Below, piece after piece: positions 1,797-51,136 of a DNA stretch of 64,000 nt. Position 1 is the stretch's first letter. Every line of letters begins with the position of its first letter. Source of the stretch: Deltaproteobacteria bacterium (GTDB taxonomy: Bacteria; UBA10199; JACPAL01; GCA-016699445); contig CP064976.1 of assembly GCA_016699445.1 (NCBI GenBank), positions 2,478,162 through 2,542,161 on the forward strand. Reading direction: 5' to 3'. The position numbers and the translations under genes were made by a program. Under the pieces are notes generated by a model, which ran no database searches, was not told where the DNA came from, and saw only the letters and a program-made list of their open reading frames with translations.

Positions 1797-4283
1797 ATGG
1801 ATGATATCGTCAAAGAGTTTTTGGTCGAAAGTAATGAAAACCTTGATCAGATGGACAGAAACTTTGTCGAGCTGGAAAAGGATCCCACCAACAAAGAGCT
1901 TCTTTCAGCTATTTTTAGAACCATACATACCATTAAGGGTACCTGCGGGTTTTTAGGATTTGGAAAGTTAGAATCCGTAGCTCATGTGGGCGAAAGTCTT
2001 TTGAGTAAACTTCGTGATGGGTCTCTCACTCTCAATCCCGATTTTACGACGATCTTGCTGACCATGGTTGATGCTGTCCGTCAGATGCTTTCATCTATAG
2101 AATCCAGTGGAGCTGAAGGCGATGTAGATTATTCACTCTTGGTTGAAAATTTGAATAAAGCTCAGCGAGGTGAACCTCTTAATCTCTCGGACTCTGCAAA
2201 ACCAGAAGCTAAACCTGAAGTAAAACCTGAGGTTAAAGTAACACCTCAAGAATCTGCCCCAGAAGTTAAAGCTGAGGTTAAGCCCGAAATTAAACCTGAA
2301 GTGATTGAGGCTAAAGTTGAAGTAAAAACTGAAATAGTACCTGAAGTACCGCCTCCGGTAGTAAAGATGGAAGAAGTTAAAATAGAGGTACCTAAAGCTC
2401 CCGAAAAACCAGCAGAACCCGTGAAGGCTCCAGAGCCTGTTAAAGCTGCCGAACCAGTTAAGGCTGCCGAACCGGTGAAAACTCCGGAGCCAGCCAAAGC
2501 TTCAGGGCCGGCGCCAACACCATCACCATCACCATCTCGAGGAGAAGCGAAAGCTGGAAGTTCTGTGGCGGATACAGCAATTCGTGTGGATGTGGGTCTT
2601 TTAGATAAGCTCATGAATCTTGTGGGTGAACTTGTTCTGGCTCGAAATCAGATTTTACAATTTACAGCCAAACAAGAAGACTCGACATTTGTCGCCGCCT
2701 CTCAACGACTCAATCTGATTACAAGTGAGTTGCAAGAAGGCGTCATGAAGACGCGCATGCAGCCTATTGGAAATATTTGGAGTAAATTTCCCCGCGTTGT
2801 TCGAGATCTAGCTACTATTTGTAAGAAAAAAATCCGTCTTCAAATGGAAGGCCAGGAAACTGAACTGGATAAAACCATCATCGAAGCTATCAAGGATCCT
2901 TTAACTCATTTGGTTAGAAATTCTGTCGATCATGGAATTGAAATGCCCGAAGAGCGGGCCGCTAAAGGAAAATCCGAAGAAGGTGTCATCTTGCTTCGAG
3001 CCTATCATGAGGGTGGTCAGGTCAATATTGAAATCTCTGATAACGGTGGTGGTATCAGCCCTGAAAAAGTAAAACAAAAAGCTCTTCAAAAAGGTCTCAT
3101 CACCGCAGAAGATGCAGCGCGTATGAGTGACCGTCTATTGGTAAATTTGATTTTCCTTCCCGGATTTTCCACTGCAGAAAAAGTCAGCAATATCTCAGGT
3201 CGCGGTGTGGGTATGGACGTGGTGAAAACCAATATCGAAAAAATTGGTGGTATGGTCGATATTCAAAGTAATCCCGGTGAAGGTACTACGATTAAAGTTA
3301 AAATTCCTCTTACGTTGGCAATTATTCCTGCTTTGATTGTCACCAGTGGTGGATGGAAATATGCGATTCCACAAGCCAGCTTGTTGGAACTGGTGCGTGT
3401 TGAAAATGAGCCAGGAAAAAAGAAAATCGAAAACATTCAAGGAGCTCCTGTTTATCGTTTGAGAGGTAAATTATTACCACTGGTCTATCTGCGTGAACAG
3501 TTGGGTGATTTTACAAAACCAAACGAAGAAAATGTGAATATCGTCGTCTTGCAAGCCGATGATCGTCATTTTGGTTTAGTGGTAGATGAAATTAACGACA
3601 CTCAGGAAATCGTTGTCAAACCTGTCGGTAAACAACTCAAAGGTGTTCCTACATTTGCGGGTGCTACAATTATGGGTGATGGGCATGTGGCGTTGATTTT
3701 GGACATTATGGGTATTGCACAGAGAGCTAATCTTGTTTCTGAGCTGCATGATCATGCTATTCAGGACATGAATAGTACTCAGGTGAAAAGTTCAGATGTT
3801 AAATCGATGTTACTTTTTGCCAGTCGTGACAACGGTCGTATGGCCGTTAATCTTTCCGAAGTCGCTCGATTGGAAAAGTTTGATAACAAAGAAATTGAAC
3901 GTGCTGGTGATCAGGAAGTTATCCAGTATCGTGGTGAAATCATGTCGCTGATTCGGGTGTCTTCTGTGATTCCTGAAAGACGACGTGTCCCTCGTGATGC
4001 CGAAGCTATTATTAAAAATGTCGGTGATTCTATTCAGGTCGTTGTCTATTCGCAAAATGGAAAAAATGTCGGGATCGTGATTGATAAGGTTTTGGATATT
4101 GTCGAAACCGATGAAGCTATTCAAGAAAGTGGCTCTCGCAAAGGTATTGCGGGTACTGTTGTGATTCAGGAGCGCATTACAGAAATTTTAGACATTCCGC
4201 GCGCGATCGATCTCTATCATCAAAAAATTCATCTGAATAAAACAGAAGAGCCTTTAGCTAAGGAGGAATCCTATGTCTCATGA
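1797..4283 (+). CDS. cheA: Chemotaxis histidine kinase CheA (P1, long low-complexity linker, P3-P4, two CheW-like domains)
   Basis: HTIKG phospho-His motif, IRVDVGLLDKLMNLVGELV dimerisation domain, HLVRNSVDHG and SGRGVGMDVV ATPase boxes, C-terminal CheW-like domains. Confidence 0.97.
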   Translation: MDDIVKEFLVESNENLDQMDRNFVELEKDPTNKELLSAIFRTIHTIKGTCGFLGFGKLESVAHVGESLLSKLRDGSLTLNPDFTTILLTMVDAVRQMLSSIESSGAEGDVDYSLLVENLNKAQRGEPLNLSDSAKPEAKPEVKPEVKVTPQESAPEVKAEVKPEIKPEVIEAKVEVKTEIVPEVPPPVVKMEEVKIEVPKAPEKPAEPVKAPEPVKAAEPVKAAEPVKTPEPAKASGPAPTPSPSPSRGEAKAGSSVADTAIRVDVGLLDKLMNLVGELVLARNQILQFTAKQEDSTFVAASQRLNLITSELQEGVMKTRMQPIGNIWSKFPRVVRDLATICKKKIRLQMEGQETELDKTIIEAIKDPLTHLVRNSVDHGIEMPEERAAKGKSEEGVILLRAYHEGGQVNIEISDNGGGISPEKVKQKALQKGLITAEDAARMSDRLLVNLIFLPGFSTAEKVSNISGRGVGMDVVKTNIEKIGGMVDIQSNPGEGTTIKVKIPLTLAIIPALIVTSGGWKYAIPQASLLELVRVENEPGKKKIENIQGAPVYRLRGKLLPLVYLREQLGDFTKPNEENVNIVVLQADDRHFGLVVDEINDTQEIVVKPVGKQLKGVPTFAGATIMGDGHVALILDIMGIAQRANLVSELHDHAIQDMNSTQVKSSDVKSMLLFASRDNGRMAVNLSEVARLEKFDNKEIERAGDQEVIQYRGEIMSLIRVSSVIPERRRVPRDAEAIIKNVGDSIQVVVYSQNGKNVGIVIDKVLDIVETDEAIQESGSRKGIAGTVVIQERITEILDIPRAIDLYHQKIHLNKTEEPLAKEESYVS
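2409..2498 (+). repeat. Five imperfect 18-bp tandem repeats in the CheA linker (xxEPVK)
   Basis: PAEPVK-APEPVK-AAEPVK-AAEPVK-TPEPAK encoded by units starting at 2409, 2427, 2445, 2463 and 2481. Confidence 0.85.
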
Positions 4284-4721: not shown

Positions 4722-6148
4722 ATGAATACGAGCTCATGGTCAATTAAGAAAAAAATGGGATCCACAATGACTGTGGTTATTTCTGTGATGGTTTTGATGG
4801 GTGCAATGATAGGCCTGTCTTTTTTCAAGTTTAATTCAGGAGTTTCAAGATTGGAAAAAGGTGTGGACGAGATGAATGCTGTCAAAGATCTCCAGCTGCA
4901 AGTGTCGAATATATGGCAATATCTCACTGATGCTTCATTGGTTCAAGATGGGGAAGGTCTCAAAGAAGCCAAAAAGTCATGGAAGAAGCTAATAAAAATA
5001 TTGCCGTTCTGATCGAGTTTAATCGTGATGATGCTCAGGGTTTAGAAAAAGTGAAGGCGATAGAAGCCTCATTGCCTAAAATGTTTCATATCGGAGAAGA
5101 GATGAGCAAGGCCTATGAAGTTTCCAAGTCTGAAGGGGATAAGGTCATGGGTGAGTTTGATGCGGCTGGATCTAAAGTCATCGAATCTCTTGAGCCATTA
5201 GCACAAAAAGAAGATCAGGATTCTGTTCAGGTAAAAAATGATATGCATCATGTGATTGTCGGTTTTGGAACTGCTTTGGGCCTTCTTTCTTTAGGAGCTA
5301 TTACTTTCTTATCGATAGTTTTAAAAGCACTCTCCAATCAGATTTCACAACCTTTGGATGAAGCCTGGAATTATTTAGCCACAGCCTCTCATGATCTTGT
5401 GTCTGTGAGTGGAACTCTCAATGTGAATGCTGAAGACACGGCGAATCGAGCGAATATGGTCTCAGCGGCTTCTGAGCAAATCAGTAAAAATATTCAGACT
5501 ATATCGACGAGTCTGGATCAGATGAATCAGGCTGTTCACGAAATTTCACAAAGCACAGCACAAGGAAACCAAGTAGTGAATGAAGCTGTACGGTCTGTTC
5601 AGGAAACTAATCAGAAAATTTCAAAATTAGGAGAAAGCAGTGAAGAAATTGGCAATGTCGTCAAAGTGATCACATCGATTGCTGAACAAACTAATCTTTT
5701 AGCTCTCAATGCGACCATTGAAGCGGCTCGTGCAGGTGAAGCAGGAAAAGGCTTTGCGGTTGTGGCCAATGAAGTGAAAGAACTCGCTAAACAAACAGCT
5801 AAAGCCACTGAAGAAATTAGCCAAAAAATTAATTTAATACAGACGGATTCCCAAGTGGCTGTCAAATCCATGGAAGATATCAGTCGTGTGATCAATCAGG
5901 TCCATGACCTGCAAAATACTATTGCCAGTGCTATTGAAGAACAAAGTGCCACCACCAGTGAAATGACTCGCAATGTGAGCGAAGCGGCAACAGGTAGCAA
6001 TGAAATCGCTCAAAATATCGTGAGTGTTGCTGTCTCGGCTCAAAAGACTTCTCAAGGAGCTGGTGAAACCAAGAGAGTGTCTGATTCATTACCCCGAATA
6101 TCTGATAAGATTCGGTCTTTAGTACAGGGTGCAGCTGTAAACATTTAA
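4722..6148 (+). CDS. Methyl-accepting chemotaxis protein 1 (one apparent frameshift near 4982)
   Basis: TM1 in ORF 4722-5012; periplasmic domain, TM2 and signalling domain in ORF 4979-6148. TCATGGAAG read as TCA TGG GAA restores a single frame. Confidence 0.88.
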
Positions 6149-6160
6149 ACAGGAGACGTC

Positions 6161-7621
6161 ATGCTCAGTTTTTTAAGCAATATGCCTATTAAAAAGAAGT
6201 TGATGCTGCAGCTGAGCATTTTGTTGATGGGAGTGCTTGTCATTGGTGGCGTCACAGCAAAAACTTTCAATCATGTCAAAGTGACAGGTCCTGTTTACAC
6301 ACAAATTATTTTGGGAAAAGATCTTTTGGCTGATATTTTGCCACCTCCTGAATACATTATTGAAAGTTATCTCACAGCACATCTCATGCAGAATGAGACA
6401 AATAATGATAAGTTGAATCAACTCAAAGACAAGATGGATCAGCTTCAAAAAGACTATGAATCGCGTCATCAGTATTGGGCTGAAAATCCTACCAGTGAGA
6501 AAATTAACGAATTAATTCTTGAAAAGTCCTATAAGCCCGCTGAAGCTTTTTTTAAAAACTATCATGCTGATTTTCTTCCAGCACTTCTTGAAAATGACAG
6601 AGTGAAATCACGAGAAATTTTAAATGGAGAAATGACATTAAACTACGAAGAGCATCGAGCTCGTGTAGATGAATTGGTTAAAGTCTCGACCGATTGGGTG
6701 AGTGGGGTGGAACAGGGGGCTAAAGATACGATTAAAGGGGATCTGTGGATACTATTTACAACAGCTGCCATTTTGTTATCGGTTATCATCGCCTTTGCCT
6801 TCATGATCAGAGGTCAAGTATCACAGAATATCGATAAAATCTTTGCTGTGGTAAACACTGTTTTTGGATCTTCTCAAACTTTAAACAATATCAGTCAGCA
6901 GATGAGCTCCAATTCAGAAGAAACGTCAACTCAAGCCAATGTCGTCTCGGCAGCAGCTGAAGAAGTGAGTAAAAATGTCAACACCGTCGCTACAGGTGTT
7001 GAACAAATGAACCAGGCTGTCCGTGAAATTTCTCAAAGCACCAGTCAGGGAAATCAAGTGGTCACCATGGCTGTGAATACGGTTCAAGAAACGAATCAAA
7101 CAATTTTGAAATTGGGAAGTAGTAGTGAGGAAATTGGGAATGTTTTAAAAGTGATTACTTCGATTGCTGAACAAACCAATTTGCTAGCCCTTAATGCCAC
7201 CATTGAAGCCGCTCGTGCAGGTGAAGCTGGTAAGGGTTTTGCGGTAGTGGCAAACGAAGTCAAAGAGCTCGCCAAACAAACAGCTAAAGCTACAGAAGAA
7301 ATTGGTCACAAAATAATGGTGATTCAGACAGACTCGCAAGCTGCCGTTAAAGCTATGGAAGAGATCAGCAAAGTGATTAATCAAATTCATGATCTGCAAA
7401 ATACTGTGGCCAGTGCTATTGAAGAACAAAGTGCCACTACCAATGAAATGGCTCGCAATGTTCAGGAGGCCGCTCAAGGTAGTAAAGATATTGCTCAAAA
7501 TATTACCGGTGTGGCTCAGGCTGCACAAAATACAACTATTGGAGCGGATGAAACTCAACGATCAGCCTCTGAACTCTCTCATATGGCCGATCAACTCAAA
7601 GTCGCCTTAGCGACATTTTGA
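6161..7621 (+). CDS. Methyl-accepting chemotaxis protein 2
   Basis: Intact ORF with two TM segments, a helical periplasmic domain containing [20 protein letters not shown], and the conserved MCP tip. Confidence 0.95.
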
Positions 7622-7632
7622 TAGGGGAAATT

Positions 7633-9079
7633 ATGGATCTCAACAGAATGACAATTCAGAAAAAATAAATCTTCTGAATGCCTTTCTTTTTATCTCCTGT
7701 TTGCTGGTGGGAGGGATTGGGTACAAAGGGCTCCATGACCTCAATAATGACATTCGCCACTTAGGACAAGTGGACATGCAAGCTGTGCGCAACATGACTT
7801 TAGTGGATATGATGCATGATGGGTTGAGGGCTGTTGTTTATAAGTCAATCATCGCTTCTCAGACTGGCAATCAAGAGATGAAGACGGAAGCTCGAGATGA
7901 AATTAAAGAGTTTTCAGAAAATATGAATGTGTATTTGAAAACCTTGAATGATCTTCCTTTGGATCAAAAAATTAAAAAAGAGATTCAAGAATCCAAGCCC
8001 GTCGTCGATAATTATACACAAAATGCCACAAAGCTGGTCGCACTTGCTTTGGATGAAGGGTCTTCGCAGGCTTTGGCCAATATTGAACCTTTTGATAAAG
8101 CTTTTGGCGAATTAGAAGTAAAATTGGGTCAGCTCGGAGAAGAGATTGAAAAGGGTGCTGAGGAATCTTCGCTAACTTCTATTGAAGAAGGTAGCAATTA
8201 CAACCTCGTCTCCATAGCTCTTCTCTCCATTGTCTCTATCTTAAGTGCAGGTCTGTGGTTTTTTATCAATCGTGATATCAAATCGCCCATCGATGCCATG
8301 ATAAAAATTTCTCAGGATGTCGCAAATGCTTCCCAACAACTGACATCGGTGAGCCATCAAATGAGTAGCAGTTCGGAAGAAACATCATCTCAAGCCCGTG
8401 TGGTCTCTTCAGCAGCCGAACTGGTGAATAAGAATATTCAAACAGTGGCTACAGGATGGAACAAATGAATATGGCTGTTCAGGAGATCTCAAAGAGTACC
8501 AGCCAAGGAAATGCGGTTGTCAGTAATGCTGTGCAAACGGTTCAAGAAACAAACAAAGCCATCGCTAAATTAGGTGATAGCAGTGAACAAATTGGAAACG
8601 TTGTAAAAGTCATCACGTCAATTGCAGAACAGACAAACTTGCTTGCACTCAATGCCACCATTGAAGCGGCCCGTGCAGGTGAAGCCGGTAAAGGTTTTGC
8701 TGTCGTGGCCAATGAAGTGAAAGAGCTAGCGAAACAAACTTCTAAATCGACTGAAGAAATTAGTCAGAAGATTTCAATGATCCAAAATGACACCCAAGTG
8801 GCGATCAAGTCGATTGAAGAAATCAGTCAGATTATTTCTCAAATTAATGATCTTCAACACACAGTAGCCAGTGCCATTGAAGAACAAAGTGCGACTACAA
8901 GCGAAATTAGCCGCAGTGTCAGTGAAGCGGCCAAAGGTAGTGATGAAATTACGCAAAATATTACGGGTGTGGCCCAGGCTGCACAAAATACAAATACGGG
9001 TGCTAATGAAACCCAAAATTCAGCCTCTGAACTTTCCAAGATGGCTATTGAATTGAGATTGTCTGTAAGTCACTTTTAA
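7633..9079 (+). CDS. Methyl-accepting chemotaxis protein 3 (apparent frameshifts near 7665 and 8457)
   Basis: ATG 7633 with GGGGA RBS; one extra A in the A6 run gives [30 protein letters not shown]; GGA[A]TGGAACAA joins ORFs 7701-8468 and 8456-9079. Confidence 0.85.
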
Positions 9080-19490: not shown

Positions 19491-20435
19491 AAACTCTCCC
19501 AATCCTTCCAAACAGGCTCGTAGCCTTTTTGTTGGATGACGTGAGCCACTTCTTCAGGGCTACGATCATCTTCGATTTCAAATTGTTTCAAACTTTTTCA
19601 GGTTGTTGATAACCACCAGGTTCTAGGCGTGAACCCGCACTCATGCGTGTGATACCTAAACCTATCAATTGATCACGCAGAGCAGGTGATTCGCGTGTGG
19701 ATAAAACAATGCCCACTTCTGGAAGTTCACAACGAAGCATCGCAATCAATTCAATAAACTCCTCATCAGAAACAGGGTGGGGAATTTCAAATGATGAAGC
19801 GCACGGACGCAAGCGTGGTAGGCTGATGGTAATTTCTGTTTGCCAATATTTTTTCTGAATGTGTCGGACATGTTTGATGAGAGCTGCCGCATCTTTTTGA
19901 TGATCGGCAAGCCCCAGAAGAATACCCATTCCCAATTGACGGACTCCGGCTTTAGCAACTTCTTCAGGTGCTAGGATGCGTTGTTGGTAATCTTTCTTAG
20001 GACCGCCTTTGTGCATTTTGGCGTAAATCTCAGGATCGTAAGTCTCTTGATACATGACGACTCCGTCCAATCCAGCTTGAGTCAAACGTCGGTAAACAGC
20101 AGCCTCAAAAGGTGCGACTTCAATCGAGAGTGCAGACACAAATGGCTTTAGCTTCAACAGACAAGCTTCCAAGTAATCCGGCGATACGTGTTTGGGATGT
20201 TCGCCTGCGACAAGCAAAATATGCTGAAAATTTTGATGTATGAGAAACTGAGCTTCACTTAAAACCTCATCAGGAGTGAGTGTTTTGCGTTCAATTCTAT
20301 TTTCACGACTAAAGCCGCAATAGGTACAGGTATCGACACATTCATTTGAAAGATAAAGTGGTGCGTAGAGTTGGATGGTTTTTCCAAAACGTTGAAGGTG
20401 AGATCGCGGGCTTTTTTTAATAATTGTATATTCAT
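19487..20435 (-). CDS. thiH: 2-iminoacetate synthase ThiH (radical SAM; apparent frameshifts near 20399 and 19603)
   Basis: [19 protein letters not shown] (CxxxCxxC), [18 protein letters not shown] motifs. The corrected N-terminus reads [13 protein letters not shown][L]QRFG and the corrected C-terminus [13 protein letters not shown]...[12 protein letters not shown]. Confidence 0.88.
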
Positions 20436-20438
20436 ATC

Positions 20439-20513
20439 GTAGGGGCGCCATTCATGGCGCCCGATTAATTAAGGCGTGATAATAAATCAGGGCGTGATAA
20501 ATCACGCCCCTAC
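20439..20513. repeat. GTAG-family REP doublet (REPIN-like) between thiG and thiH
   Basis: Left arm GTAGGGGCGCCATTCATGGCGCCC, spacer, right arm GGGCGTGATAAATCACGCCCCTAC; the right arm is identical to 38379-38402. Confidence 0.9.
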
Positions 20514-21290: not shown

Positions 21291-21494
21291 TTAACCCCCT
21301 CCAACTGCACGGATGAGTTCGATGACGTCATTGTGCCGGATTGTGTGTGTTTCAAACTGTGAATGGGAAATAATTTCCGCATTGATGGCAATCGCCAGAG
21401 CTTTGTTTTCTATTTTGAGCTGTGAAAGTAGGGTGGAAAGAGAAATTTCCGAATCAAAAGTCTGAATCTGTCCATTGACAGTAATCGTAATCAT
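21291..21494 (-). CDS. thiS: Sulfur carrier ThiS
   Basis: 67 aa, ITVNGQ start, C-terminal VGGG. Confidence 0.93.
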   Translation of the reverse strand: MITITVNGQIQTFDSEISLSTLLSQLKIENKALAIAINAEIISHSQFETHTIRHNDVIELIRAVGGG

Positions 21495-21582
21495 GTTTCC
21501 CTCCGCCCGCATTATCGGGATCAGGTTTTAAGGGTTTCTCTGTCTCAACAGAGATCTCAGCTGACCATCAGCACCCCTGATT
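21495..21582 (-). ncRNA. TPP riboswitch
   Basis: Minus strand reads AGGGGTGC...GCTGAGA...ACCCTT AAAACCTGATCCCGATAATGCGGGCGGAGGGA, the canonical TPP aptamer core, directly upstream of thiS. Confidence 0.95.
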
Positions 21583-21583
21583 T

Positions 21584-22177
21584 TTAGTGAGTCTTTATTC
21601 CATTAATAGACTGCAGTTCGATAATAGCTTCGTCATGCTGTTGTACTTTATGTGCAACATAATCCATTTTCTCATTAAGCTCAGAAATTCCCTGTGTGTT
21701 TTGATCAACTTTAAGACTTAATGAAGCAATATCACCTTTAAGTTCAGTCCTAAGATCCTGCATATCACCTTTAAGTTCAGTCCTAAGATCCTGCATATCA
21801 CCTTTAAGTTCAGTTCTAAGATCCTGAATATCACCTTTAAGTTCGGTTCTAAGATCCTGAATATCACCTTTGAGTTCGGTTCTAAGATCCTGAATATCAC
21901 CTTTAAGTTCGGTTCTGAACGTTTCAATTTTGTCTACAAGTGATCTTCTTGTAAAATCTAATTCGTCTCTAATATCTTTGATATCGAGTTTGATGGTTTG
22001 AATCTCTTCTTTCATGCTTGCTTGAAATCCAAGCAAACCTTCAGCAACAGCTCTAAACTCACTTTTCAGATCCTCAACCAAAACTGCAGTGTAATGGGAA
22101 ACTGATTCTGACTTATTGGAAATATCAGAAACTTTTTTGGTGCTTTTAAGGGCTTTTTTAGACGTGCTTTTTTTCAT
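21584..22177 (-). CDS. Coiled-coil protein with 11-aa (hendecad) repeats; resembles DUF1640/BDR-type proteins
   Basis: Likely start MKKSTSKK at 22177; basic N-terminus, then VLVEDLKSEFRAVAEG, then TELKGD(I/M)QDLR repeats. Confidence 0.7.
   Translation of the reverse strand: MKKSTSKKALKSTKKVSDISNKSESVSHYTAVLVEDLKSEFRAVAEGLLGFQASMKEEIQTIKLDIKDIRDELDFTRRSLVDKIETFRTELKGDIQDLRTELKGDIQDLRTELKGDIQDLRTELKGDMQDLRTELKGDMQDLRTELKGDIASLSLKVDQNTQGISELNEKMDYVAHKVQQHDEAIIELQSINGIKTH
21729..21916 (-). repeat. 5.7 tandem copies of a 33-bp unit (coding VNTR)
   Basis: Plus-strand unit ATATCACCTTT(A/G)AGTTC(A/G)GT(C/T)CTAAGATCCTG(C/A) starting at 21729, 21762, 21795, 21828, 21861 and 21894 (partial); no spacers. 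Confidence 0.95.
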
Positions 22178-22267
22178 CGCGAAGGGCGAACTTACAGAAC
22201 GAAAAAGAAAAAGCAAAGCCTTTGAAGTCCTGCATGAAATATTCTTAAAATTATCAATCTGAAAAAA

Positions 22268-29794: not shown

Positions 29795-31365
29795 TGGAGA
29801 ATAAAATGAAACGCGCTTTAATCAGTCTTTCCGATAAAACAGGCATCGTCCCTTTTGCCAAAGGTCTTCATGAGTTGGGAATTGAGATTTTATCAACAGG
29901 TGGAACCGCAAAACTTTTAAAAGAAAATCTCATTCCTGTTGTGGAAGTGGGGGATTACACAGGTCAGCCTGAAATTTTGGATGGTCGTTTAAAAACTCTT
30001 CACCCTAAAATTCATGGTGGCATTTTGGGTATGCGCTCCAATGTACAGCATGTGGAAGACATGAAAAAATCTCAGATTCAGCCCATCGATCTGATCGTGG
30101 TCAATCTTTATCCTTTTGAACAAACCATTGCTCAAGCCGGTGTGACTCTCGAACATGCGATTGAAAATATTGATATTGGTGGTCCGACAATGATTCGTGC
30201 AGCGGCTAAAAACTGGCAGGATGTGGCTGTCGTTGTGGATCATCAGGATTACGCGAAAATTTTAGAAGAATTACGTAGGGGCGATATTCATGACGCCCCA
30301 AACGTAACCAAAGAAACCAAATTTGAATTAGCAAAAAAAGTTTTTGTCCTGACCTCCCGTTATGATGGAGCGATTGCCAATTATTTAACAGGTGGAAAAG
30401 ACAATCAATTTCCCGAAACATTCAATTTTCAATTTCAAAAAGTTCAAGAGCTTCGCTATGGCGAAAACCCTCATCAGAAGGCTGCATTTTATAAAGATGG
30501 GGCCAGTGGTGTTTCGAGTGCTAAACAACTCCATGGTAAAGAACTCTCGTTTAATAATATTTTGGATCTGGATGCGGCGTTTGGATTGGTATTGGATTTT
30601 TCCGAAACTGCGTGCGTGATTGTGAAACATACCACGCCTTGTGGTGTGGCCGTAGGGGCGATTCATGAATCACCCCTACATGATATTTTTGTCGCGGCTC
30701 GTGATTGTGATCCCTTATCGGCTTTTGGTGGTATCATTGCTTTCAATCGTCCTGTCGATGTGGCCACAGCTCAGGAAATTTCAAAAGATTTTTATGAATG
30801 TGTGATTGCTCCATCGTTTGCGCCTGAGGCTTTTCAAATTATCGCTGGTAAGAAAAATATCCGTATCATGGAGTTGCCTTCTGCTATTTCTAAGAAACAA
30901 TTGGATCTCAAGAGAGTCTCTGGTGGTTTGTTGGTTCAGGAAAAAGATGAACAGATTGAAAATGTTCGTGAGTCTAAAGTGGTTTCTGCACGTCAGCCTT
31001 CTGATACCGAGTGGAATGTTCTGCAGTTTGCCTGGAAAGTGTGTCGTGGGGTGAAATCCAACGCCATTGTCTATGCCGGTGCTGAAGGAAATATTATTAA
31101 AACGTTGGGAATTGGTGGTGGTCAAGTGAGTCGTGTTGATGCGACCAAGATTGGTATTTCAAAAGCCCGCACATCTCTTAAAGGAGCTGTTATGGCTTCC
31201 GATGCCTTCTTTCCATTCCGCGATAATATTGACGAAGCGGCTAAAGCAGGGATTGCAGTTGTCGTCCAACCCGGTGGCTCGATGAGAGACGATGAGACGA
31301 TCCAAGCCGTCAATGAACATCAAATGGTCATGCTCTTTACGGGAGCTCGGCATTTTAGACATTAA
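29794..31365 (+). CDS. purH: Bifunctional AICAR transformylase/IMP cyclohydrolase
   Basis: RALISLSDKTG, GRLKTLHP, IDIGGPTMIRAAAKN, LRYGENPHQ and ASDAFFPFRD motifs (start may be 29806). Confidence 0.97.
   Translation: MENKMKRALISLSDKTGIVPFAKGLHELGIEILSTGGTAKLLKENLIPVVEVGDYTGQPEILDGRLKTLHPKIHGGILGMRSNVQHVEDMKKSQIQPIDLIVVNLYPFEQTIAQAGVTLEHAIENIDIGGPTMIRAAAKNWQDVAVVVDHQDYAKILEELRRGDIHDAPNVTKETKFELAKKVFVLTSRYDGAIANYLTGGKDNQFPETFNFQFQKVQELRYGENPHQKAAFYKDGASGVSSAKQLHGKELSFNNILDLDAAFGLVLDFSETACVIVKHTTPCGVAVGAIHESPLHDIFVAARDCDPLSAFGGIIAFNRPVDVATAQEISKDFYECVIAPSFAPEAFQIIAGKKNIRIMELPSAISKKQLDLKRVSGGLLVQEKDEQIENVRESKVVSARQPSDTEWNVLQFAWKVCRGVKSNAIVYAGAEGNIIKTLGIGGGQVSRVDATKIGISKARTSLKGAVMASDAFFPFRDNIDEAAKAGIAVVVQPGGSMRDDETIQAVNEHQMVMLFTGARHFRH
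30275..30303. repeat. Degenerate GTAG-REP inside purH (encodes RRGDIHDAPN)
   Basis: GTAGGGGCGATATTCATGACGCCCCAAAC; stem GGGGCG/CGCCCC retained, terminal CTAC eroded. Confidence 0.7.
30652..30679. repeat. GTAG-REP inside purH (encodes VGAIHESPL)
   Basis: GTAGGGGCGATTCATGAATCACCCCTAC; one mismatch from a perfect 28-bp palindrome. Confidence 0.9.
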
Positions 31366-32478: not shown

Positions 32479-33314
32479 TGTTTAATAAAACAGTTATTAT
32501 CGGTGTGGGTTTATTAGGTTCATCGATCGGGATGAATCTGATTTCAAAAAAATTGTCCCAAGAAGTCATTGGTGTGGGTCGTGATATTCGAAATTTGAAA
32601 ACCGCCCAACGTCGAAAGGCGATCCATCGATATTTAAATGTAGGGGCAATTCATGAATTGCCCCTACGGGATTTGACCTACAACGATCTCGTTATTTTGG
32701 CAGCGCCTGTGTCTGCGATTAAAAATTACCTTAAAGAAATTCCAAACGATGTTTTGATCACGGATGTGGGGAGTGTCAAAGAGTCGATTCTCAAAGAAGC
32801 AGAACGTTTAAAGAAACGATTTGTAGGATCTCATCCGATTAGTGGTACTGAAAAAACAGGGGCTCAATCAGGGGATGTGGACTTGTTTCAAGACCGCTCA
32901 TGTATTGTCACACCTTCGAAATATTCAAAATCTTCCGATGTGGCCAAGATTAAAAAACTCTGGGCTCAGTTGGGAAGTCGGGTATCTGTGATGTCTGCTT
33001 CCGAGCATGATCGTCTCTTTGCCTACACGAGTCATCTGCCTCATGCTGTAGCCTATTCATTGATCCAATCGACTATTTTAAAAACGTCACAGAAACATTT
33101 TGTTTTTAGTAGTTTTCGGGATGCTACGCGTGTGGCGGCAAGCTCGCCTGAGATGTGGCGTGATATTTTTCTGGAAAATTCTGGGGAAATCACCCATGCG
33201 ATCGCGGCTTTTCAAAAACAATTGGATCATCTGATATCTTTGATGAAGAAAAAAGATACAACCTCTCTCATGAAATTTTTAAAAAAGGGACAGGAGATAC
33301 GACAAAAGCTATGA
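32478..33314 (+). CDS. tyrA: Prephenate dehydrogenase
   Basis: GVGLLGSS Rossmann motif, TDVGSVK, FVGSHPISGTE, HD...AYTSHLPH, TRVAASSPEMW. Confidence 0.93.
   Translation: MFNKTVIIGVGLLGSSIGMNLISKKLSQEVIGVGRDIRNLKTAQRRKAIHRYLNVGAIHELPLRDLTYNDLVILAAPVSAIKNYLKEIPNDVLITDVGSVKESILKEAERLKKRFVGSHPISGTEKTGAQSGDVDLFQDRSCIVTPSKYSKSSDVAKIKKLWAQLGSRVSVMSASEHDRLFAYTSHLPHAVAYSLIQSTILKTSQKHFVFSSFRDATRVAASSPEMWRDIFLENSGEITHAIAAFQKQLDHLISLMKKKDTTSLMKFLKKGQEIRQKL
32640..32667. repeat. Perfect 28-bp GTAG-REP palindrome inside tyrA (encodes VGAIHELPL)
   Basis: GTAGGGGCAATTCATGAATTGCCCCTAC is its own reverse complement. Confidence 0.93.
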
Positions 33315-35591: not shown

Positions 35592-36546
35592 GGCTCTGAA
35601 AGAAAAATTTACGGGGAAACTTCCCAAAGACTGTTTGGAGATTAAATCTCTCTCTCGGAATCAAATTGAGACGATTCTAGATCTGGCTCAGGAGTTTAAA
35701 GAGAAGGAAGCTCGAGGCCAGAAAAAGCATGAAGATCTCAAAGGCAAAGCCCTGATTAATATTTTCTTCGAGCCTTCTACACGCACACGCACTTCTTTTG
35801 AGCTCGCGGGCCGTAGGCTCTCAGCTGATATGATGACCATTGCACCTCAAGCCTCCAGCCTCTCTAAAGGTGAGAGCTTGAAGGATATGATTGAAAATCT
35901 TGAAGCTATGGGGCCGGATTTGATGGTGGTTCGTCATGCAGCCAGTGGAGCTCCTGGTTTGATAGCTTCGTATACAAAAGCGGCAGTGGTGAACGCAGGT
36001 GATGGTTCTCACGAACATCCCACTCAAGCCCTCTTGGATGCTTTTACTGTTAAAGAAAAGTTGGGAGAGATTCAGGGTAAGCATCTGGTGATTGTGGGAG
36101 ATATTTCTTATAGCCGTGTGGCCAGGTCCAATATTTATGCGTTTTGCAAATTAGGTGGCAAAGTGACGTGTGTGGGTCCTGCGACGTTGATTCCTCCAGG
36201 TATCGAAAAGATGGGGGCTAAGGTTGAGACTGATCTTGATAAAATTTTGCCTCATGCCGACGCTGTGATGTTTCTTCGGATTCAGAAAGAACGTCAGGAA
36301 AAAATGAATTTTCCGTCCATTGCTGAATACACACGCTTTTATGGAATGAATCGAACCAGATGGGCTGCTTTGAAAAAAGAAGCTCTCATTATGCATCCTG
36401 GTCCTATCAATCGAGGTGTTGAGATTGAGCCTGAGATTGCCGATGGTCGCTTAGAAGGTGGGGCCCAAACAGTGATTTTGGATCAGGTAAAAAATGGCAC
36501 CGCTGTCCGTATGGCGGTTCTCTCCTTGTGGGGGCGATCAAAATGA
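35590..36546 (+). CDS. pyrB: Aspartate carbamoyltransferase catalytic subunit
   Basis: FFEPSTRTRTSF, NAGDGSHEHPTQALLD, GDISYSRVARSN, MHPGPINRGVEI. Start is uncertain: TTG 35590 (GGAGG 8 nt upstream) or ATG 35530. Confidence 0.95.
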   Translation: MALKEKFTGKLPKDCLEIKSLSRNQIETILDLAQEFKEKEARGQKKHEDLKGKALINIFFEPSTRTRTSFELAGRRLSADMMTIAPQASSLSKGESLKDMIENLEAMGPDLMVVRHAASGAPGLIASYTKAAVVNAGDGSHEHPTQALLDAFTVKEKLGEIQGKHLVIVGDISYSRVARSNIYAFCKLGGKVTCVGPATLIPPGIEKMGAKVETDLDKILPHADAVMFLRIQKERQEKMNFPSIAEYTRFYGMNRTRWAALKKEALIMHPGPINRGVEIEPEIADGRLEGGAQTVILDQVKNGTAVRMAVLSLWGRSK

Positions 36547-37823
36547 AAATGCTCATTAAAAATGGTCATGTTGTAGACCCTGTAGCGAAAAAAGATGGCT
36601 TGTTTGATCTTTTGATCGAAGATGGAAAAATTAAAAAGTGGGAGAAAAGACTACGTGTGGACACTGTCGATACGATCATCGATGCCAAAGGATTGGTAGT
36701 GACTCCAGGATTGATTGATCTTCATACTCATCTTCGTGAACCGGGTTATGAATATAAAGAAACCATCAAAACCGGAAGTATGGCTGCAGCGGCGGGTGGG
36801 TTTACGACGATTGTCTGCATGGCTAATACAAATCCTGTAAACGATAATGCGGTCATCACCGAGTTTATTACTAAGCGTGCTCAAGAAGAGGCGATTGTGA
36901 ATGTCTTGCCCATTGGAGCCATTTCGAAAAATCTCGAAGGGAAAGCGATGGCGGATATTGGTCAGATGGCCGAAGCGGGTATTGTGGGTATTTCCGATGA
37001 TGGTCGCTGTGTGATGGATACAGCACTCATGAGAAAATCCATGCAGTATGCGAGAGGTTTTGGATTGATGGTTGTCTCGCATGCAGAAGATGAATGTTTG
37101 TCGGGCCATGGTTCGATGAATGAAGGCCCTGTAGCTACTGAGCTAGGATTGTCAGGCTCGCCCAATGCCGCTGAAGAGTTGATTGTCGCTCGTGATATTG
37201 CCTTAGCTGAATTAACCAAAGCCAAGTTGCATATTGCTCACATGTCATCTCGAGGAAGCTTGGAATTGGTAAAAGCTGCTAAGAAGCGTGGTGTCTCAGT
37301 GACCTGCGAAGTGACACCTCATCATCTATTTCTCACAGATGAAGCTGTGCGTGGTTATAATACCAATGCTTCAGTGCGACCTCCATTGCGTTCACGTGAA
37401 GATGCTCTGGCTCTGAGACGCGGGATTGAAGATGGGTTTGTCGATACTATTGCGACCGATCACGCCCCTCATGCGTCTTTTGAAAAAGAAGTCGAATTTG
37501 CCCAAGCGGCTCATGGGATGGTGGGATTGGAAACGTCTTTAGCTCTTTGTCTCAAGCTTGTTCAGGATCGCTCAATCAAGCTTTCACAATTGATCAAGCT
37601 GATGTCAGCAAATCCAGCTCATATCTTAGGTTTGAAATCGAAGGGTACTCTTAAGCCGGGCGCCGATGCAGATATTGCTATCTTTGATCCAAACGAAAAA
37701 TGGAATGTCGACCCGACAAAATTTTATTCCAAAAGTCGCAATACACCTTTTGGAGGATGGAGTCTGAAGGGTAAAATTAAATACACTGTCGTGAATGGGA
37801 AAATTGTTTATGAAAACATCTAA
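36543..37823 (+). CDS. pyrC: Dihydroorotase (class I)
   Basis: DLHTHLREPG, AAAAGGFTTIVCMANT, EVTPHHL, IATDHAPH, SKSRNTPF. Confidence 0.96.
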   Translation: MKMLIKNGHVVDPVAKKDGLFDLLIEDGKIKKWEKRLRVDTVDTIIDAKGLVVTPGLIDLHTHLREPGYEYKETIKTGSMAAAAGGFTTIVCMANTNPVNDNAVITEFITKRAQEEAIVNVLPIGAISKNLEGKAMADIGQMAEAGIVGISDDGRCVMDTALMRKSMQYARGFGLMVVSHAEDECLSGHGSMNEGPVATELGLSGSPNAAEELIVARDIALAELTKAKLHIAHMSSRGSLELVKAAKKRGVSVTCEVTPHHLFLTDEAVRGYNTNASVRPPLRSREDALALRRGIEDGFVDTIATDHAPHASFEKEVEFAQAAHGMVGLETSLALCLKLVQDRSIKLSQLIKLMSANPAHILGLKSKGTLKPGADADIAIFDPNEKWNVDPTKFYSKSRNTPFGGWSLKGKIKYTVVNGKIVYENI

Positions 37824-38954
37824 GTGTTTATTGGTCTTAGAAGACGGAAGCGTCTTTGAAGGAAAATCCTTTGGATATGTCGGTGAATCCATCGGCGAAA
37901 TTGTCTTTAATACCAGCATGACAGGATATCAGGAAATTCTTACCGATCCTTCGTATAAAGGCCAGATGGTTGTGATGACGTATCCTGAAATTGGAAATTA
38001 CGGAATCAATCTTGAAGATATCGAATCTCGAAAACTTTTTTTAGAAGGGTTTATTGTCAGACAATACAATCCGATGCCGTCTAATTTTCGATCGACTCAA
38101 ACTCTGGATCAATACCTGAAAAAAAATAAAGTCGTCGGAATCGAAGGTGTGGATACGCGAGCTCTTACACGCCATCTGCGCGATCATGGTTCGAAGATGG
38201 GAATTATCTCTAATGTCGATGGGGATGTGAAACGCCTTTTGAAAAAGTAAAAGCTGCACCCAAGATGGTGGGACGTGATTTGGCCAAGGAAGTGACTTGT
38301 GAAAAGCCTTATCATTGGACGGAAAAATTGTGGGAATTGGACGTAGGGGCGCAATTAATTGCGCCCAGGCAAGATGCAGGGCGTGATAAATCACGCCCCT
38401 ACAAAGTAGTCGCCTATGATTTTGGAATCAAATACAACATTCTTCGAGGTTTGGTGAGTGCCGGTTGTGATGTGACGGTTGTACCTGCAATGACTTCAGC
38501 ATCAGATGTTTTAGCCATGAATCCAGACGGCATTTTTCTTTCCAATGGTCCGGGTGATCCTGAGCCTGTGACGTACGCTATTGAAAATATTCAAAAGCTG
38601 TTGGGGAAAAAACCACTTTTTGGAATTTGCCTAGGCCATCAACTTCTAGGACTGGCTTTGGGTGGAAAGACGTACAAGTTAAAATTTGGTCATCATGGGG
38701 GCAATCAACCTGTGATGGATATGAGTACACGAAAAGTCGAAATCACCTCTCAAAATCACAATTTTGCTGTGGATACCGACTCGCTGAAAGGTTTGGCTGA
38801 ACTTTCTCATGTGAATCTCAATGACAAGACTGTTGAAGGAATGAGTGTGATTGGGAAGCCTGCGTTTTCAGTTCAATACCATCCGGAAGCCTCACCGGGT
38901 CCGCATGATTCTCAGTATTTATTTAATCGATTTGTGGAAATGATGAAGGGTTAG
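37810..38954 (+). CDS. carA: Carbamoyl-phosphate synthase small subunit (apparent frameshift near 38245)
   Basis: [48 protein letters not shown]; one extra A in the A5 run joins the two ORFs. Confidence 0.95.
38343..38402. repeat. 60-bp GTAG-REP doublet inside carA (20 codons, [20 protein letters not shown])
   Basis: Left arm GTAGGGGCGCAATTAATTGCGCCC, 12-bp spacer, right arm GGGCGTGATAAATCACGCCCCTAC. Confidence 0.93.
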
Positions 38955-38956
38955 TT

Positions 38957-41900
38957 ATGCCAAAACGTACAGACATTAAGAAAATTATGATTATTGGTTC
39001 CGGTCCTATCGTGATCGGACAAGCGTGTGAGTTTGATTATTCAGGGACTCAAGGTTGCCGAGCTCTCAAAGAAGAAGGCTACGAAGTCATTCTGGTAAAT
39101 TCAAATCCTGCGACGATCATGACAGATCCTGAACTTGCGGATCGCACCTATTTTGAGTCCATCACTCCAGATGTTGTCGCGAAGATCGTCGAGCGCGAAC
39201 GTCCGGATGCGATCCTGCCCACACTTGGCGGTCAGACAGGTCTTAATACTGCCGTGGCTTTAGCCGAATCAGGACTTCTGGCTCGCCTGGGTATTGAACT
39301 CATCGGAGCCAAACTTCCCGCCATTAAAAAAGCAGAGGATCGCGAACTTTTTAAAGAAGCGATGCTGAAAATTGGTCTCGATATTCCCAAAGGTGGATTT
39401 GCGACCAATATGGACGAAGCGATGAAGGTTGTGAAGGAAGTTGGATTTCCAGCGATTATTCGACCTTCATTCACACTGGGTGGCACAGGTGGTAGTGTTG
39501 CAAAAATGAAAAAGAATATCGTGAGCTCGTACGTATCGGTATGGAAGCCAGCCCGACCAGTCAGGTGTTGGTAGAAGAATCTATTTTAGGTTGGAAAGAA
39601 TACGAACTCGAAGTGATGCGTGACACCAAGGACAATGTCGTCATCATTTGTTCGATAGAAAATTTTGACCCGATGGGTGTGCATACAGGAGATTCCATCA
39701 CCGTTGCACCCGCTCAAACATTGACGGATAAAGAATATCAAATCATGCGCGATGCTTCTCTCAAAGTCATTCGAGAGATTGGTGTGGATACCGGCGGATC
39801 CAATATTCAGTTTGGTTTAAATCCTAAAAATGGCCGCATGGTGGTCATCGAAATGAATCCTCGTGTGTCGCGCAGCTCGGCTCTGGCTTCGAAGGCTACA
39901 GGTTTTCCGATTGCGAAGATCGCGACGAAGTTGGCGGTTGGTTATACATTAGATGAAATCCTCAATGATATTACCAAAACAACACCAGCGAGTTTTGAGC
40001 CTACGATTGATTACGTGGTGACAAAAATTCCACGATTTACGTTTGAAAAATTTCCACAAGCGAAGGCTGTGCTCACCACTCAAATGAAATCAGTGGGAGA
40101 GGCGATGGCCATTGGTCGAACTTTTCGTGAATCCATGCAGAAGGCCATCCGTTCTTTGGAAACAGGGCATTATGCTTTAGGCTTGGGTAAGCTTGAAAAA
40201 GATTTTCCCAAAGATAAGGCAAAGGCGACAAAAGTTTTAAAAGAGAAGCTGTCGGTTCCTAATCCTGAGCGGATGTACTATGTGGCTGAAGCCTTGCGAC
40301 GTGGTTGGACGATTGCTCAAGTCCATAAATATTCCTACATCGATCCTTGGTTTTTGTATCACATGAATGAATGTCTTCAGTTTGAAAAAGTTTTACAGAA
40401 AAAGAAGCCTGAAGATTTGTATCAAGCAAAACAAATGGGTTTTTCGGACAAACGCATTGCAGAGCTTTGGAAGTTGGATTCAAAAACGGGTGAATTGAAA
40501 ATTCGAAAAATCCGAAAACAGAAAAAAGTTCTTCCTGTTTATAAACGTGTGGATACCTGCGGTGCTGAGTTTGTCGCTCATACACCATATCAATATTCTA
40601 CTTACGAACAAGAAGACGAATCCGCGGTTACCAAGAAAAAGAAAATCATGATTTTGGGTGGTGGGCCTAATCGTATCGGGCAAGGTATTGAATTTGATTA
40701 TTGCTGCGTCCATGCCAGCCTGGCTTTGCGTGATGCTGGTTTTGAAACCATCATGGTCAATTGTAATCCCGAGACCGTGAGTACGGACTATGATGTGTCC
40801 AGCCGACTTTATTTTGAGCCACTCACCTACGAAGATGTTTTGAATATTGTCGAAAAAGAAAAACCTTTTGGAGTGATTGTGCAGTTTGGTGGGCAGACTC
40901 CTCTGAAATTAGCTGTACCCTTGATGAAGGCTGGGGTTCCGATCATTGGGACGTCTCCTATGGATATCAATCGAGCTGAAGATCGAAAACTTTTTGCGAC
41001 CATGCTCAACAAACTCAAGATTCGCCAAACTCAAAATGGGACAGCCAATACGGATAAAGAAGCTATCAAGATCGCCAATAAGATTGGCTATCCGGTGGTC
41101 GTGCGACCTTCGTATGTGCTCGGTGGTCGTGCGATGGAAATTGTTTATAATGATGCTGGCTTGAAGGATTATCTCAAACGAGAATCTTGGGTGAAGCCTA
41201 TTTTAATTGATCATTTTCTGGAAGCGGCTGTTGAAGTCGACGTGGATGCTTTGTGTGATGGCAAGAATGTTTTTGTGGCCGGTATCTTGGAGCATATTGA
41301 AGAAGCGGGGATTCATTCGGGTGATAGTGCGATGAGTTTGCCGACACGTTCATTATCGGAAAAAATGCTGGATCAGATTAAGGATTGGACGATCCGCATG
41401 GCCAAGGAGCTTAAAGTCATTGGTTTGATGAATGTTCAATATGCGATCAAAGACGATCAACTCTATGTCCTTGAAGTCAATCCAAGAGCTTCACGTACAG
41501 TGCCGTTTATTTCAAAAGCTACAGGACGTCCTTTGGCTAAAATTGCTTCATTGATTATGAGTGGTAAAAAGCTCAAAGATTTTGATCTCAAGCCTGAGAG
41601 AGTTTTTGATCATATAGCGATTAAAGAGTCGGTGTTTCCATTTAGTAAATTTCCAGGTGTGGATACGTTGTTAGGGCCTGAAATGAAATCGACTGGTGAA
41701 GTCATGGGAATTGCCAGCACGTTTGGTGAAGCTTTTGCCAAATCCCAAATTGCAGCTGGAAATCATTTGCCCCTTCAGGGCACAGTTTTTGTGAGTGTGC
41801 GTGATTCTGACAAACCGATTGTTTTACCTGCCATTCAAAAACTTCATGACTTGGGTTTTAAATTGATTGCTACAGATGGTACCGCCAAATTTTTAAATCA

Positions 41901-50432: not shown

Positions 50433-50756
50433 ATGCTCATCAATTCATCTGATTTGGATAAAGTAAAACAGGTTGTTGAAAAATATTTTATCTCAATTGA
50501 CGGTGATCTCTTTTTGTTTGGTTCTCAAGCGACAGGCCAGCAAACACGTATATCAGATTATGATATTGGCTATTTTGCCGATGAAAATCTAAATCCTACC
50601 CAAAGAGAAAATCTTCGTGAGGAATTGGAAAATCTCGACATCCCTGTAAAGGTTGACCTAATCAATTTTAAGGAAGTTACGGACGATTTCAAAGAGATTG
50701 CCCTTAAAAAAGTGATTTTATGGAAGAAGAAATCAAAAAACTCTCTCTTCAATTAG
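50433..50756 (+). CDS. Minimal nucleotidyltransferase (MNT) antitoxin
   Basis: GS-x10-DYD motif (GSQATGQQTRISDYD), KVDLI; 107 aa. Confidence 0.88.
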   Translation: MLINSSDLDKVKQVVEKYFISIDGDLFLFGSQATGQQTRISDYDIGYFADENLNPTQRENLREELENLDIPVKVDLINFKEVTDDFKEIALKKVILWKKKSKNSLFN

Positions 50757-51136
50757 AGATGCTTAAAAAAGCGCTGTCTACTCTCAATGAGGCCCTGAGA
50801 GAGCCTTATGTCACGCTGATACGTGATGCTTCTATTCAGCGTTTTGAATATACCTTTGAATTAGCCTGGAAAATCTTCCGACGTGTTTCAAAGATTGAAG
50901 GCTTAGAAACGAATTCTCCACGTCAAGCCATTCGAAATACCTTTCAGCTGGGTTTGATTTCAGAGACGAATGCCTGGTTTCAATTTTTGGAAGATCGAAA
51001 TCTGACCTCTCATACCTATAATGAAGATAGAGCCGAGGCTGTTTATCAAAGCGCTAAAAAATTTCCTGCCGCCTTGCAGCCTGTGATTGATCTGATTGAA
51101 TCTAAATATATTCAACAATCAGACACTCAAAAATAA
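50720..51136 (+). CDS. HEPN-domain (HI0074-family) toxin
   Basis: DASIQRFEYTFELAWK and R-x4-H-x-Y (RNLTSHTY); overlaps the MNT gene. Confidence 0.88.
   Translation: MEEEIKKLSLQLEMLKKALSTLNEALREPYVTLIRDASIQRFEYTFELAWKIFRRVSKIEGLETNSPRQAIRNTFQLGLISETNAWFQFLEDRNLTSHTYNEDRAEAVYQSAKKFPAALQPVIDLIESKYIQQSDTQK

Follow-up and report, generated by a model that had tools for sequence, protein, structure and literature searches.

Can a mobile palindrome become part of an essential enzyme, and if so, does it add to the protein or replace what was there? This question is raised by a stretch of 64,000 nucleotides from a Deltaproteobacteria bacterium (contig CP064976.1; hereafter, the window), in which 60 bp of palindromic DNA, at positions 38343-38402, lie within carA, the gene for the small subunit of glutamine-hydrolysing carbamoyl-phosphate synthase (37810..38954, plus strand). 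A reading of the letters without database searches (the sequence-only reading) had proposed that these 60 bp are a doublet of repetitive extragenic palindromic (REP) elements that forms a 20-residue loop in CarA. Our analysis makes it probable that a head-to-head dimer of GTAG-tagged REPs, of the kind mobilized by REP-associated tyrosine transposases (RAYTs), was fixed in frame in the carA linker, where it took the place of nearly all of the roughly 12 ancestral residues and now encodes a surface loop of 20 residues that is probably disordered.

The element reads GTAGGGGCGCAATTAATTGCGCCC-AGGCAAGATGCA-GGGCGTGATAAATCACGCCCCTAC, that is, two REP units separated by a spacer, 60 nt in all. In the left unit (38343..38366, plus strand), a perfect 10+10 palindrome, GGGCGCAATT/AATTGCGCCC, comes after the GTAG tag and gives a 10-bp stem with a loop of 0 nt; the spacer AGGCAAGATGCA (38367..38378, plus strand) comprises 12 nt; and the right unit (38379..38402, minus strand) carries its GTAG on the minus strand (GTAGGGGCGTGATTTATCACGCCC) next to a hairpin, GGGCGTGAT-AA-ATCACGCCC, with a 9-bp stem and a 2-nt loop. 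Both units fit the pattern by which GTAG REPs are recognized, a short GC-rich palindrome (stem of about 6-13 bp, short loop) next to the tag. The tags stand at the two outer ends, at 38343-38346 (plus) and 38399-38402 (minus), and GTAG is present in every other copy in the window. Because the GTAG tag is outermost on each hairpin, the ends GTAGGGGCG...CGCCCCTAC pair with each other too, such that the two inverted units combine into a larger hairpin: folded as RNA, the whole 60-mer makes a single long hairpin with an energy of −35.5 kcal/mol and a z-score of −7.07, and 0 of 200 shuffled sequences fold equally well. Judged by this anatomy, two GTAG-tagged REP hairpins are joined head to head in the 60 bp, which resembles the REP doublets that form hairpins (REPINs) and would belong to the non-autonomous palindromic DNA moved by Y1/HUH transposases of the RAYT type. 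The GC content of the element is 57%, compared with 42% in the remainder of carA. The sequence GTAGGGGCG occurs 6 times in the window versus 0.15 expected, and the 26-mer CAGGGCGTGATAAATCACGCCCCTAC, which consists of the right arm and the preceding CA, has exact copies in the window only at 20488-20513, as the sequence-only reading had noted, and at 38377-38402, against 0 copies expected from shuffled sequences. A search against Rfam at gathering thresholds yielded no match to the carA element, the sole match in the window being a thiamine pyrophosphate (TPP) riboswitch. As a separate observation, each unit examined is preceded by a pyrimidine (Y, then GTAG); a target-site preference of this form was considered and judged too weak to count.

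The earlier description of the element as exactly 60 bp, equal to 20 codons with no stop, is accurate. Position 38343 is in phase with the open reading frame (ORF) 38265-38954, at an offset of 78, and the 20 codons stand between W-E-L-D and KVVAYDFG, where they are predicted to be translated as VGAQLIAP (left unit), RQDA (spacer) and GRDKSRPY (right unit), residues 179-198 of the 381-residue protein that results once an upstream frameshift, discussed below, is repaired. Two of the six frames of the element are open, including the one in use. The carA element accordingly is an in-frame REP insert in the sense of Di Nocera et al. 2013, namely, one inside an ORF whose function is known, with the frame preserved and no stop introduced.

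An independently assembled short-read contig (L001; Logan SRR12404947) that aligns to window positions 35784-40581 allowed a direct comparison of two strains. Over 4.8 kb, the contig is 98.85% identical to the window, with 53 substitutions, whereas the 60 bp are identical; its carA is intact and encodes a protein of 381 residues (P0001) with the domains PF00988 and PF00117. Among the loci compared, L001 alone matches the window closely. All 8 substitutions between the two carA sequences are synonymous; if about three quarters of random changes were non-synonymous, such an outcome would hardly be expected in the absence of purifying selection, and carA has thus been constrained since the split of the two strains. 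The identity of the 60 bp in L001 further implies that the element is older than this split. Within-species polymorphism of the element was not seen between these two strains, L001 having the element too.

The placement of the element in the variable linker that precedes the glutaminase domain, proposed in the sequence-only reading, is borne out by both homolog alignment and a structural model. Across the 29 best CarA homologs, hypervariability in both sequence and length marks the stretch from W-x-L to [KR]V[VI]AYDFG. The alignment of P0001 with the Escherichia coli CarA chains (E = 7e-126) leaves one gap of notable size, 6 residues in the E. coli sequence, and this lies in the REP-coded segment. 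The AlphaFold2 model of P0001 has a mean predicted local distance difference test (pLDDT) score of 76.8 and a template modelling (TM) score of 0.85 to E. coli CarA 1cs0_B; in this model, residues 178-193 are coil with pLDDT <50, and the first strand of the glutaminase domain begins at residue 198, the tyrosine encoded by the terminal TAC of the element. Most homologs have tyrosine or phenylalanine at that position. Residues 179-198, encoded by the REP doublet, thus lie in the hypervariable linker between the two domains, ahead of the glutaminase part, and are predicted to form a disordered loop. The structure prediction that the earlier reading had called for yields coil for most of this segment, and the position of the loop at the protein surface is something we infer from the low confidence and the variability of the segment.

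The comparison with related CarAs indicates that the REP-coded segment took the place of another linker. The nearest CarAs, P0003 (85% identity) and P0004 (83%), have the linkers ESGYGKNKGKGF and AKGYGKNPEKGL, which are short, form no DNA hairpin and follow the pattern xxGYGKNxxKG[FL]. In a neighbour-joining tree built without the linker columns, P0001 clusters with P0002, P0003 and P0004, and the G-Y motif of the linker, present in 81 of 113 CarA homologs, is the consensus of the wider family. From the linkers of P0003 and P0004, the tree and the family consensus combined, we infer that xxGYGKNxxKG[FL] was the ancestral linker of the clade. Of its approximately 12 residues, the window retains only the first position (D), followed by the 20 REP-coded residues; about 11 residues were overwritten, and the net gain for a 60-nt element is 9 amino acids (27 nt), which implies replacement rather than simple addition. 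The shorter, unrelated and non-palindromic linker that had been predicted for sister CarAs is indeed what P0003 and P0004 have, and the notion of a 20-residue loop stands as far as the 20 REP-coded residues are concerned but not as an addition of this length. In a megablast comparison with contig L006, the alignment breaks exactly at 38325-38402, and the element is absent from the orthologous site in both L002 and L006. A presence-absence pattern at orthologous sites, the expected mark of mobility, is seen at carA (L002, L006) as well as at purH and at the thiG/thiH junction (both L209). A CarA-based scan of metagenomes found nothing above 75% identity and neither a high-identity empty site nor an intermediate. 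Taken together, the GTAG REP anatomy, the absence of the element from relatives and its presence in L001 support the original proposal that a mobile palindrome encodes part of an essential enzyme, one that serves the synthesis of both pyrimidines and arginine.

The carA element is one member of a family that is represented in the window by 7 units at 5 loci in 64 kb, with units of the form GTAGGGGC, and 4 of the 5 loci are intragenic. The intergenic member is a 75-bp head-to-head doublet (20439..20513, no strand assigned) between thiG and a radical S-adenosylmethionine/BATS gene (thiH-like). The TAG stop codon of thiG is part of the GTAG tag of this doublet, and the C-terminus of ThiG is a few residues longer; in a sister genome, L209, thiG and the thiH-like gene overlap by ATGA with no spacer. 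The purH gene contains two inserts, for which the same sister genome (P0124/L209, 88% identity) served as the reference: at site 1 (30275..30299, plus strand), a single imperfect REP unit encodes RRGDIHDAP, with a net gain of 6 amino acids, and at site 2 (30652..30679, no strand assigned), a 28-nt GTAG...CTAC palindrome encodes VGAIHESPL, with a net gain of 3. In tyrA, the gene for prephenate dehydrogenase, a perfect 28-nt GTAG...CTAC palindrome (32640..32667, no strand assigned) encodes VGAIHELPL, and the length change relative to the sister ortholog is 0. Length changes of +6, +3 and 0 residues imply that in these genes too, REPs overwrite resident loops rather than add to them. At several of these sites, the ends of the REPs encode residues similar to the ancestral ones, namely, RRG at purH site 1, VGA...SPL at purH site 2 and the tyrosine before KVV in CarA. 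As a hypothesis, this resemblance could stem from microhomology-guided template switching or merely from selection; in the closest before-and-after pair, P0003 versus P0002, junction microhomology is absent.

Beyond the window, the degenerate unit pattern GTAGGGGCGYNATTNATNRCGCCC, for which about one chance match is estimated, matches at least 120 stretches (L009-L128) in metagenome-assembled genomes (MAGs) of many phyla; the labels among the matches listed include Chloroflexota, Armatimonadota, Thermoanaerobaculia, Longimicrobium, Binatia, Gallionella, Omnitrophota, Oscillospiraceae, Bacteroidales, Thermotogae and others. The 160 units among these listed matches include variants with covarying stem positions (CG/CG, CA/TG, TG/CA, CC/GG); head-to-head dimers, which measure 49-110 nt, predominate over tail-to-tail ones by 21 to 5. 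Also among the listed matches, the 24-nt right arm of the carA element is found exactly in 9 loci of unrelated MAGs that span several phyla and a GC range of 0.40-0.66. The tyrA 28-mer GTAGGGGCAATTCATGAATTGCCCCTAC recurs in three other loci (L215:10154-10181, L167:2541-2568 and L182:89-116), and besides its copies in TyrA loops, it lies just upstream of carA in two metagenome contigs. Because both sequences are found exactly elsewhere, the identity of copies reflects constraint or spread and does not serve as a clock. The suggestion that the identical right arm betrays a recent event is therefore not sustained, all the more so as the element is older than the 1.1% divergence of the two strains; the only dating that can be given places the insertion after the split from the lineage of P0002-P0004 and before the divergence from L001.

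The family can also be linked to a transposase. The HUH motif was found only in the loci of two other genomes, L057 and L083. In L057, a Chloroflexia MAG, positions 5209-5881 match PF01797 (Y1_Tnp, IS200-like) with 27 bits against a cutoff of 23, in a gene that is split by a frame shift. A REP dimer borders this gene on either side, one of them tail to tail and the other head to head, with units identical to the carA right arm at 23 of 24 positions; RAYT genes and their REPs are classically arranged in this way. In L083, a Bacteroidales MAG, an ORF with the HUH motif continues into the REP-coded peptide GRDKSRPY. All-against-all clustering of the ORFs in the 120 REP-bearing loci revealed no gene family that recurs as a neighbour of the REPs. 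Units of the same family lie in frame in other genes as well, namely, in the inter-domain linker of MutL (L067), in a non-ribosomal peptide synthetase (L042) and in a chorismate-binding enzyme (L014).

The loops that carry REPs in the window are occupied by palindromes in distant lineages too. The CarA linker is filled by GTAG REP doublets of other sequence in L213 (P0017) and L214 (P0006) and apparently by a single REP unit in P0042, and the REP-bearing CarAs lie in different clades, scattered over the tree. In these three cases, the element reaches the R of RVIAYDFG, and in the window, it reaches the K of KVV, so that the right ends fall within 1 nt of the same codon. Even P0002 and P0003, which are about 92% identical in DNA sequence, have wholly different linkers, that of P0002 consisting of two hairpins. 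Other palindromes, of the PSPARGEG type and of further kinds, fill the CarA linker in L005, L007, L129 and L131 as well as in a number of additional homologs. A perfect stem of 9 bp or more was detected in 6 of 78 CarA linkers, compared with 1 of 1045 control windows of equal length in the same genes, although 5 of these linker loci were hand-picked and the unbiased set gives 2 of 71. At purH site 1, a perfect 46-nt doublet is present at the same left junction in L211, and a decayed remnant is present in L212. The same TyrA loop contains a copy identical to GTAGGGGCAATTCATGAATTGCCCCTAC in L215, a genome of 61% GC whose TyrA is 46% identical to that of the window, where the copy sits in a genome of 42% GC; L216 has a slightly decayed variant in this loop, and a 9-residue VGAxxIxPL loop is common to many TyrA homologs.

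We also observed a second, unrelated palindrome family, CCCTCTCCC-GCGA-GGGAGAGGG, which encodes PSPARGEG and is found in the CarA linker and at PurH site 2 of other lineages. Its carriers are L005:228-1367, L007:4515-5714 and the proteins P0007, P0015, P0018, P0024, P0035 and P0127, the last with the insert at PurH site 2. In P0054, P0060 and P0065, seemingly yet other palindromic repeats lie in the same place.

On the account that we favour, the element would have arrived as single-stranded hairpin DNA carried by a RAYT-type transposase, or else another REP copy would have been its source through exchange or conversion, and the resident linker may have been lost in the same event or shortly afterwards. 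The terminal TAC supplies the aromatic residue that normally precedes the first glutaminase strand, and selection on an essential enzyme would have spared only those events that kept the frame, introduced no stop and fell in an unconstrained loop. The REP-coded peptide is most likely a tolerated passenger, a neutral flexible tether rather than an adaptation; the hairpin may slow ribosomes or affect the fate of the mRNA.

Several observations weigh against this account. The full 60-mer has no second copy in the window, so that its replication as a REPIN unit is unsupported, and the intergenic doublet has the right arm in common with it but differs in the left arm and the spacer. A six-frame scan for the HUH motif ([VIL]MP[DNE]H.H) found no RAYT in the 64-kb window. 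The insertion is not a clean one, given that a gain of 27 nt for 60 nt requires an accompanying deletion or a replacement mechanism undocumented for RAYTs. Moreover, carA in the window consists of two ORFs, 37795-38250 and 38265-38954, with a break about 100 nt upstream of the element that the sequence-only reading had missed. If carA were a decaying pseudogene, the REP and the frameshift would both reflect lost constraint, and the fact that carB is split by a 1-nt indel as well would fit such decay. We nevertheless consider this very improbable because the two indels, at 38237-38241 (plus strand) in carA and at about 39497-39501 in carB, are each a run of five adenines (A5) where the independent short-read assembly has six (A6) and intact genes; addition of one A to the carA run restores a protein identical to P0001 at 381 of 381 residues, and the exclusively synonymous substitutions in carA are not those of a decaying gene. 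The thiH-like gene is likewise split at about 20395-20399, with CC in the window where the sister protein implies CCC, and in a gene for a methyl-accepting chemotaxis protein (MCP, a chemoreceptor; 7701-9079), the sensor and signalling domains lie on two overlapping ORFs. Four genes of the window are thus broken by single-base shifts at short homopolymers, which is typical of long-read homopolymer error, on a source contig of 2.75 Mb. The carA break is probably a homopolymer assembly error, and all four splits look like errors of this kind rather than gene decay. Programmed frameshifting or slippage at the carA run was ruled out, the tract being short and A6 in the other assembly. That the palindrome itself arose from mis-assembly or chimeric reads has next to no probability: palindromes can disturb assembly and the window has other errors, but the same 60 bp stand in a separate assembly with 53 substitutions around them.

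The recurrence of palindromes in the same loops bears on two further explanations. The loops might have been colonized long ago, with the resident REP periodically overwritten by the current variant through gene conversion or RAYT strand exchange at the old hairpin, in which case the perfect palindrome and the identical arm would signify homogenization and not new transposition. Such turnover in place would account for length gains that fall below the size of the element (27 of 60 nt in carA, 18 of 25 and 9 of 28 in purH, 0 of 28 in tyrA), for the REPs with right ends within 1 nt in the CarA linkers of L213, L214 and P0042, for the doublet and the remnant at the purH junction in L211 and L212, and for the identical 28-mer, the L216 variant and the shared VGAxxIxPL in TyrA. 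However, the non-palindromic GY-type linkers of P0003 and P0004 match the consensus, such that the carA ancestor of the clade looks REP-free; the scattered REP-bearing CarAs suit independent hits equally well; and no such mechanism has been demonstrated for REPs, whereas selection for loop length after insertion could give the same pattern. We regard turnover in place as rather unlikely. Alternatively, the hairpin or loop could have been selected for a function, such as a translational pause between the CarA domains, stability or processing of the pyrBC-carAB mRNA, or a role of the peptide. The strong fold, the enrichment of palindromes in CarA linkers (2 of 71 in the unbiased set) and the presence of same-family REPs in other inter-domain linkers such as that of MutL in L067 could all be cited for this possibility, but 81 of 113 close CarA homologs do with an ordinary GY-type linker and no hairpin, the linker palindromes vary in where they lie and how long they are and come from families that are not related, no conservation is seen among the peptides they encode, and the sequence is found in the intergenic copy also, all of which renders a selected function improbable. 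What the recurrence in CarA, PurH and TyrA hints at is either frequent independent hits filtered by selection or loops that, once colonized, are preferred targets overwritten in place, two possibilities that are inseparable here. We put forward, as a tentative possibility only, that a cross-phylum GTAG REP family and at least one other palindrome family repeatedly occupy and overwrite the same CarA, TyrA and two PurH loops by site-directed exchange, through RAYTs or conversion from the REP pool. If true, this would amount to a cassette-like process, not described for REPs, that continually rewrites protein linkers, and such a targeted mechanism would change views of both REP/RAYT movement and the turnover of protein linkers.

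Several other features of the window are worth recording. The TPP riboswitch (RF00059, 72.6 bits; 21481-21588, minus strand) lies upstream of the thiS/thiG/thiH-like cluster. The ORF 21584-22216 (minus strand), which encodes a small protein, contains 6-7 tandem repeats of 33 nt (11 residues) at 21695-21949, with weak Pfam matches of the apolipoprotein-like or coiled-coil kind, and the ORF 1797-4283 contains 12-nt periodic repeats at 2192-2350, with a product rich in Pro, Glu, Lys and Val. Three tandem chemoreceptor paralogs (4979-9079), spaced about 1485 nt apart, are 72-79% identical in DNA sequence, and an inverted related stretch is found at 441-639. At 50433-51136, a nucleotidyltransferase (NTase; PF18765/PF01909) stands beside an NTase substrate-binding protein (PF08780), a pair of the MNT/HEPN-like toxin-antitoxin type.

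With regard to known systems, Nunvar in 2010 and Ton-Hoang in 2012 reportedly described GTAG-tagged REPs and REPINs as being mobilized by RAYTs. The superfamily of GTAG-tagged REPs was defined by Di Nocera et al. 2013 (PMC3733652), according to whom its members usually occur as head-to-head ('HH') dimers, and the mobilization of REPs and REPINs has been attributed to RAYTs, which are Y1, IS200-like enzymes (Bertels & Rainey 2011, PMC3116915). The carA family resembles these systems in the 5' GTAG, the GC-rich stem of 9-10 bp, the short loop and the inverted units with GTAG outermost, as well as in its repetition within the window, its compensatory stem variants and the Y1_Tnp gene with near-identical flanking dimers in L057. 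It differs in that the carA element lies in coding sequence and 4 of the 5 loci in the window are intragenic, whereas REPs are mostly extragenic, and in that a cognate RAYT, typical of REPIN systems, is missing from the 64 kb around carA. Furthermore, REPIN-RAYT systems have been described as lineage-specific and vertically inherited (bioRxiv 10.1101/2021.07.10.451892); the near-identity of the carA family across phyla, due to horizontal spread or strong constraint, is at odds with this picture.

GTAG REPs inside genes, the majority of which form dimers or groups that encode 20-30 amino acids, are on record (Di Nocera et al. 2013, PMC3733652), and the carA element is comparable to the GTAG/CGTC monomers and dimers found in frame in genes of known function in Opitutus terrae, Thauera, Stenotrophomonas, Pseudomonas and others. 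The likeness extends to dimers of 20-30 amino acids and to genes with two inserts, several there and purH here. On the other hand, CarA, PurH and TyrA are not listed in that study (PMC3733652, Additional file 3), which stresses replication and repair genes and reports neither replacement of a resident segment nor recurrence at the same site in distant lineages. [quoted passage not shown]

For genome annotation, the peptides VGAxxIAP and GRDxSRPY can be used to flag REP inserts, the local GC spike and hairpin of which could be mistaken for errors or intergenic DNA. More generally, selfish palindromic DNA here appears to supply the entire linker between the two domains of an enzyme essential to the synthesis of pyrimidines and arginine, in an element confirmed by an independent assembly. 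The closest parallel in outcome is provided by the Rickettsia palindromic elements (RPEs), which, according to work ascribed to Ogata et al. in 2000 and Claverie and Ogata in 2003, are said to lie in frame in protein-coding genes. These too are selfish palindromes found in frame even in essential genes; proteins tolerate them at the surface, and they have been proposed to give rise to new peptide segments. The route seen in carA is the one that Claverie and Ogata proposed for the creation of such segments. The carA element nonetheless does not belong to the families RPE-1 to RPE-8: RPE-1 is a Rickettsia-specific repeat of about 100-150 bp, RPE-4 and RPE-6, which are short, belong to the CGTC type, and RPEs are described as additions, whereas the element in carA is 60 bp long, GTAG-tagged and located in a MAG of free-living type. 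With its REP doublet, carA thus provides one more instance of an already described phenomenon, REP pairs in genes, and the part that could be new is the recurrence and overwriting in CarA, PurH and TyrA.

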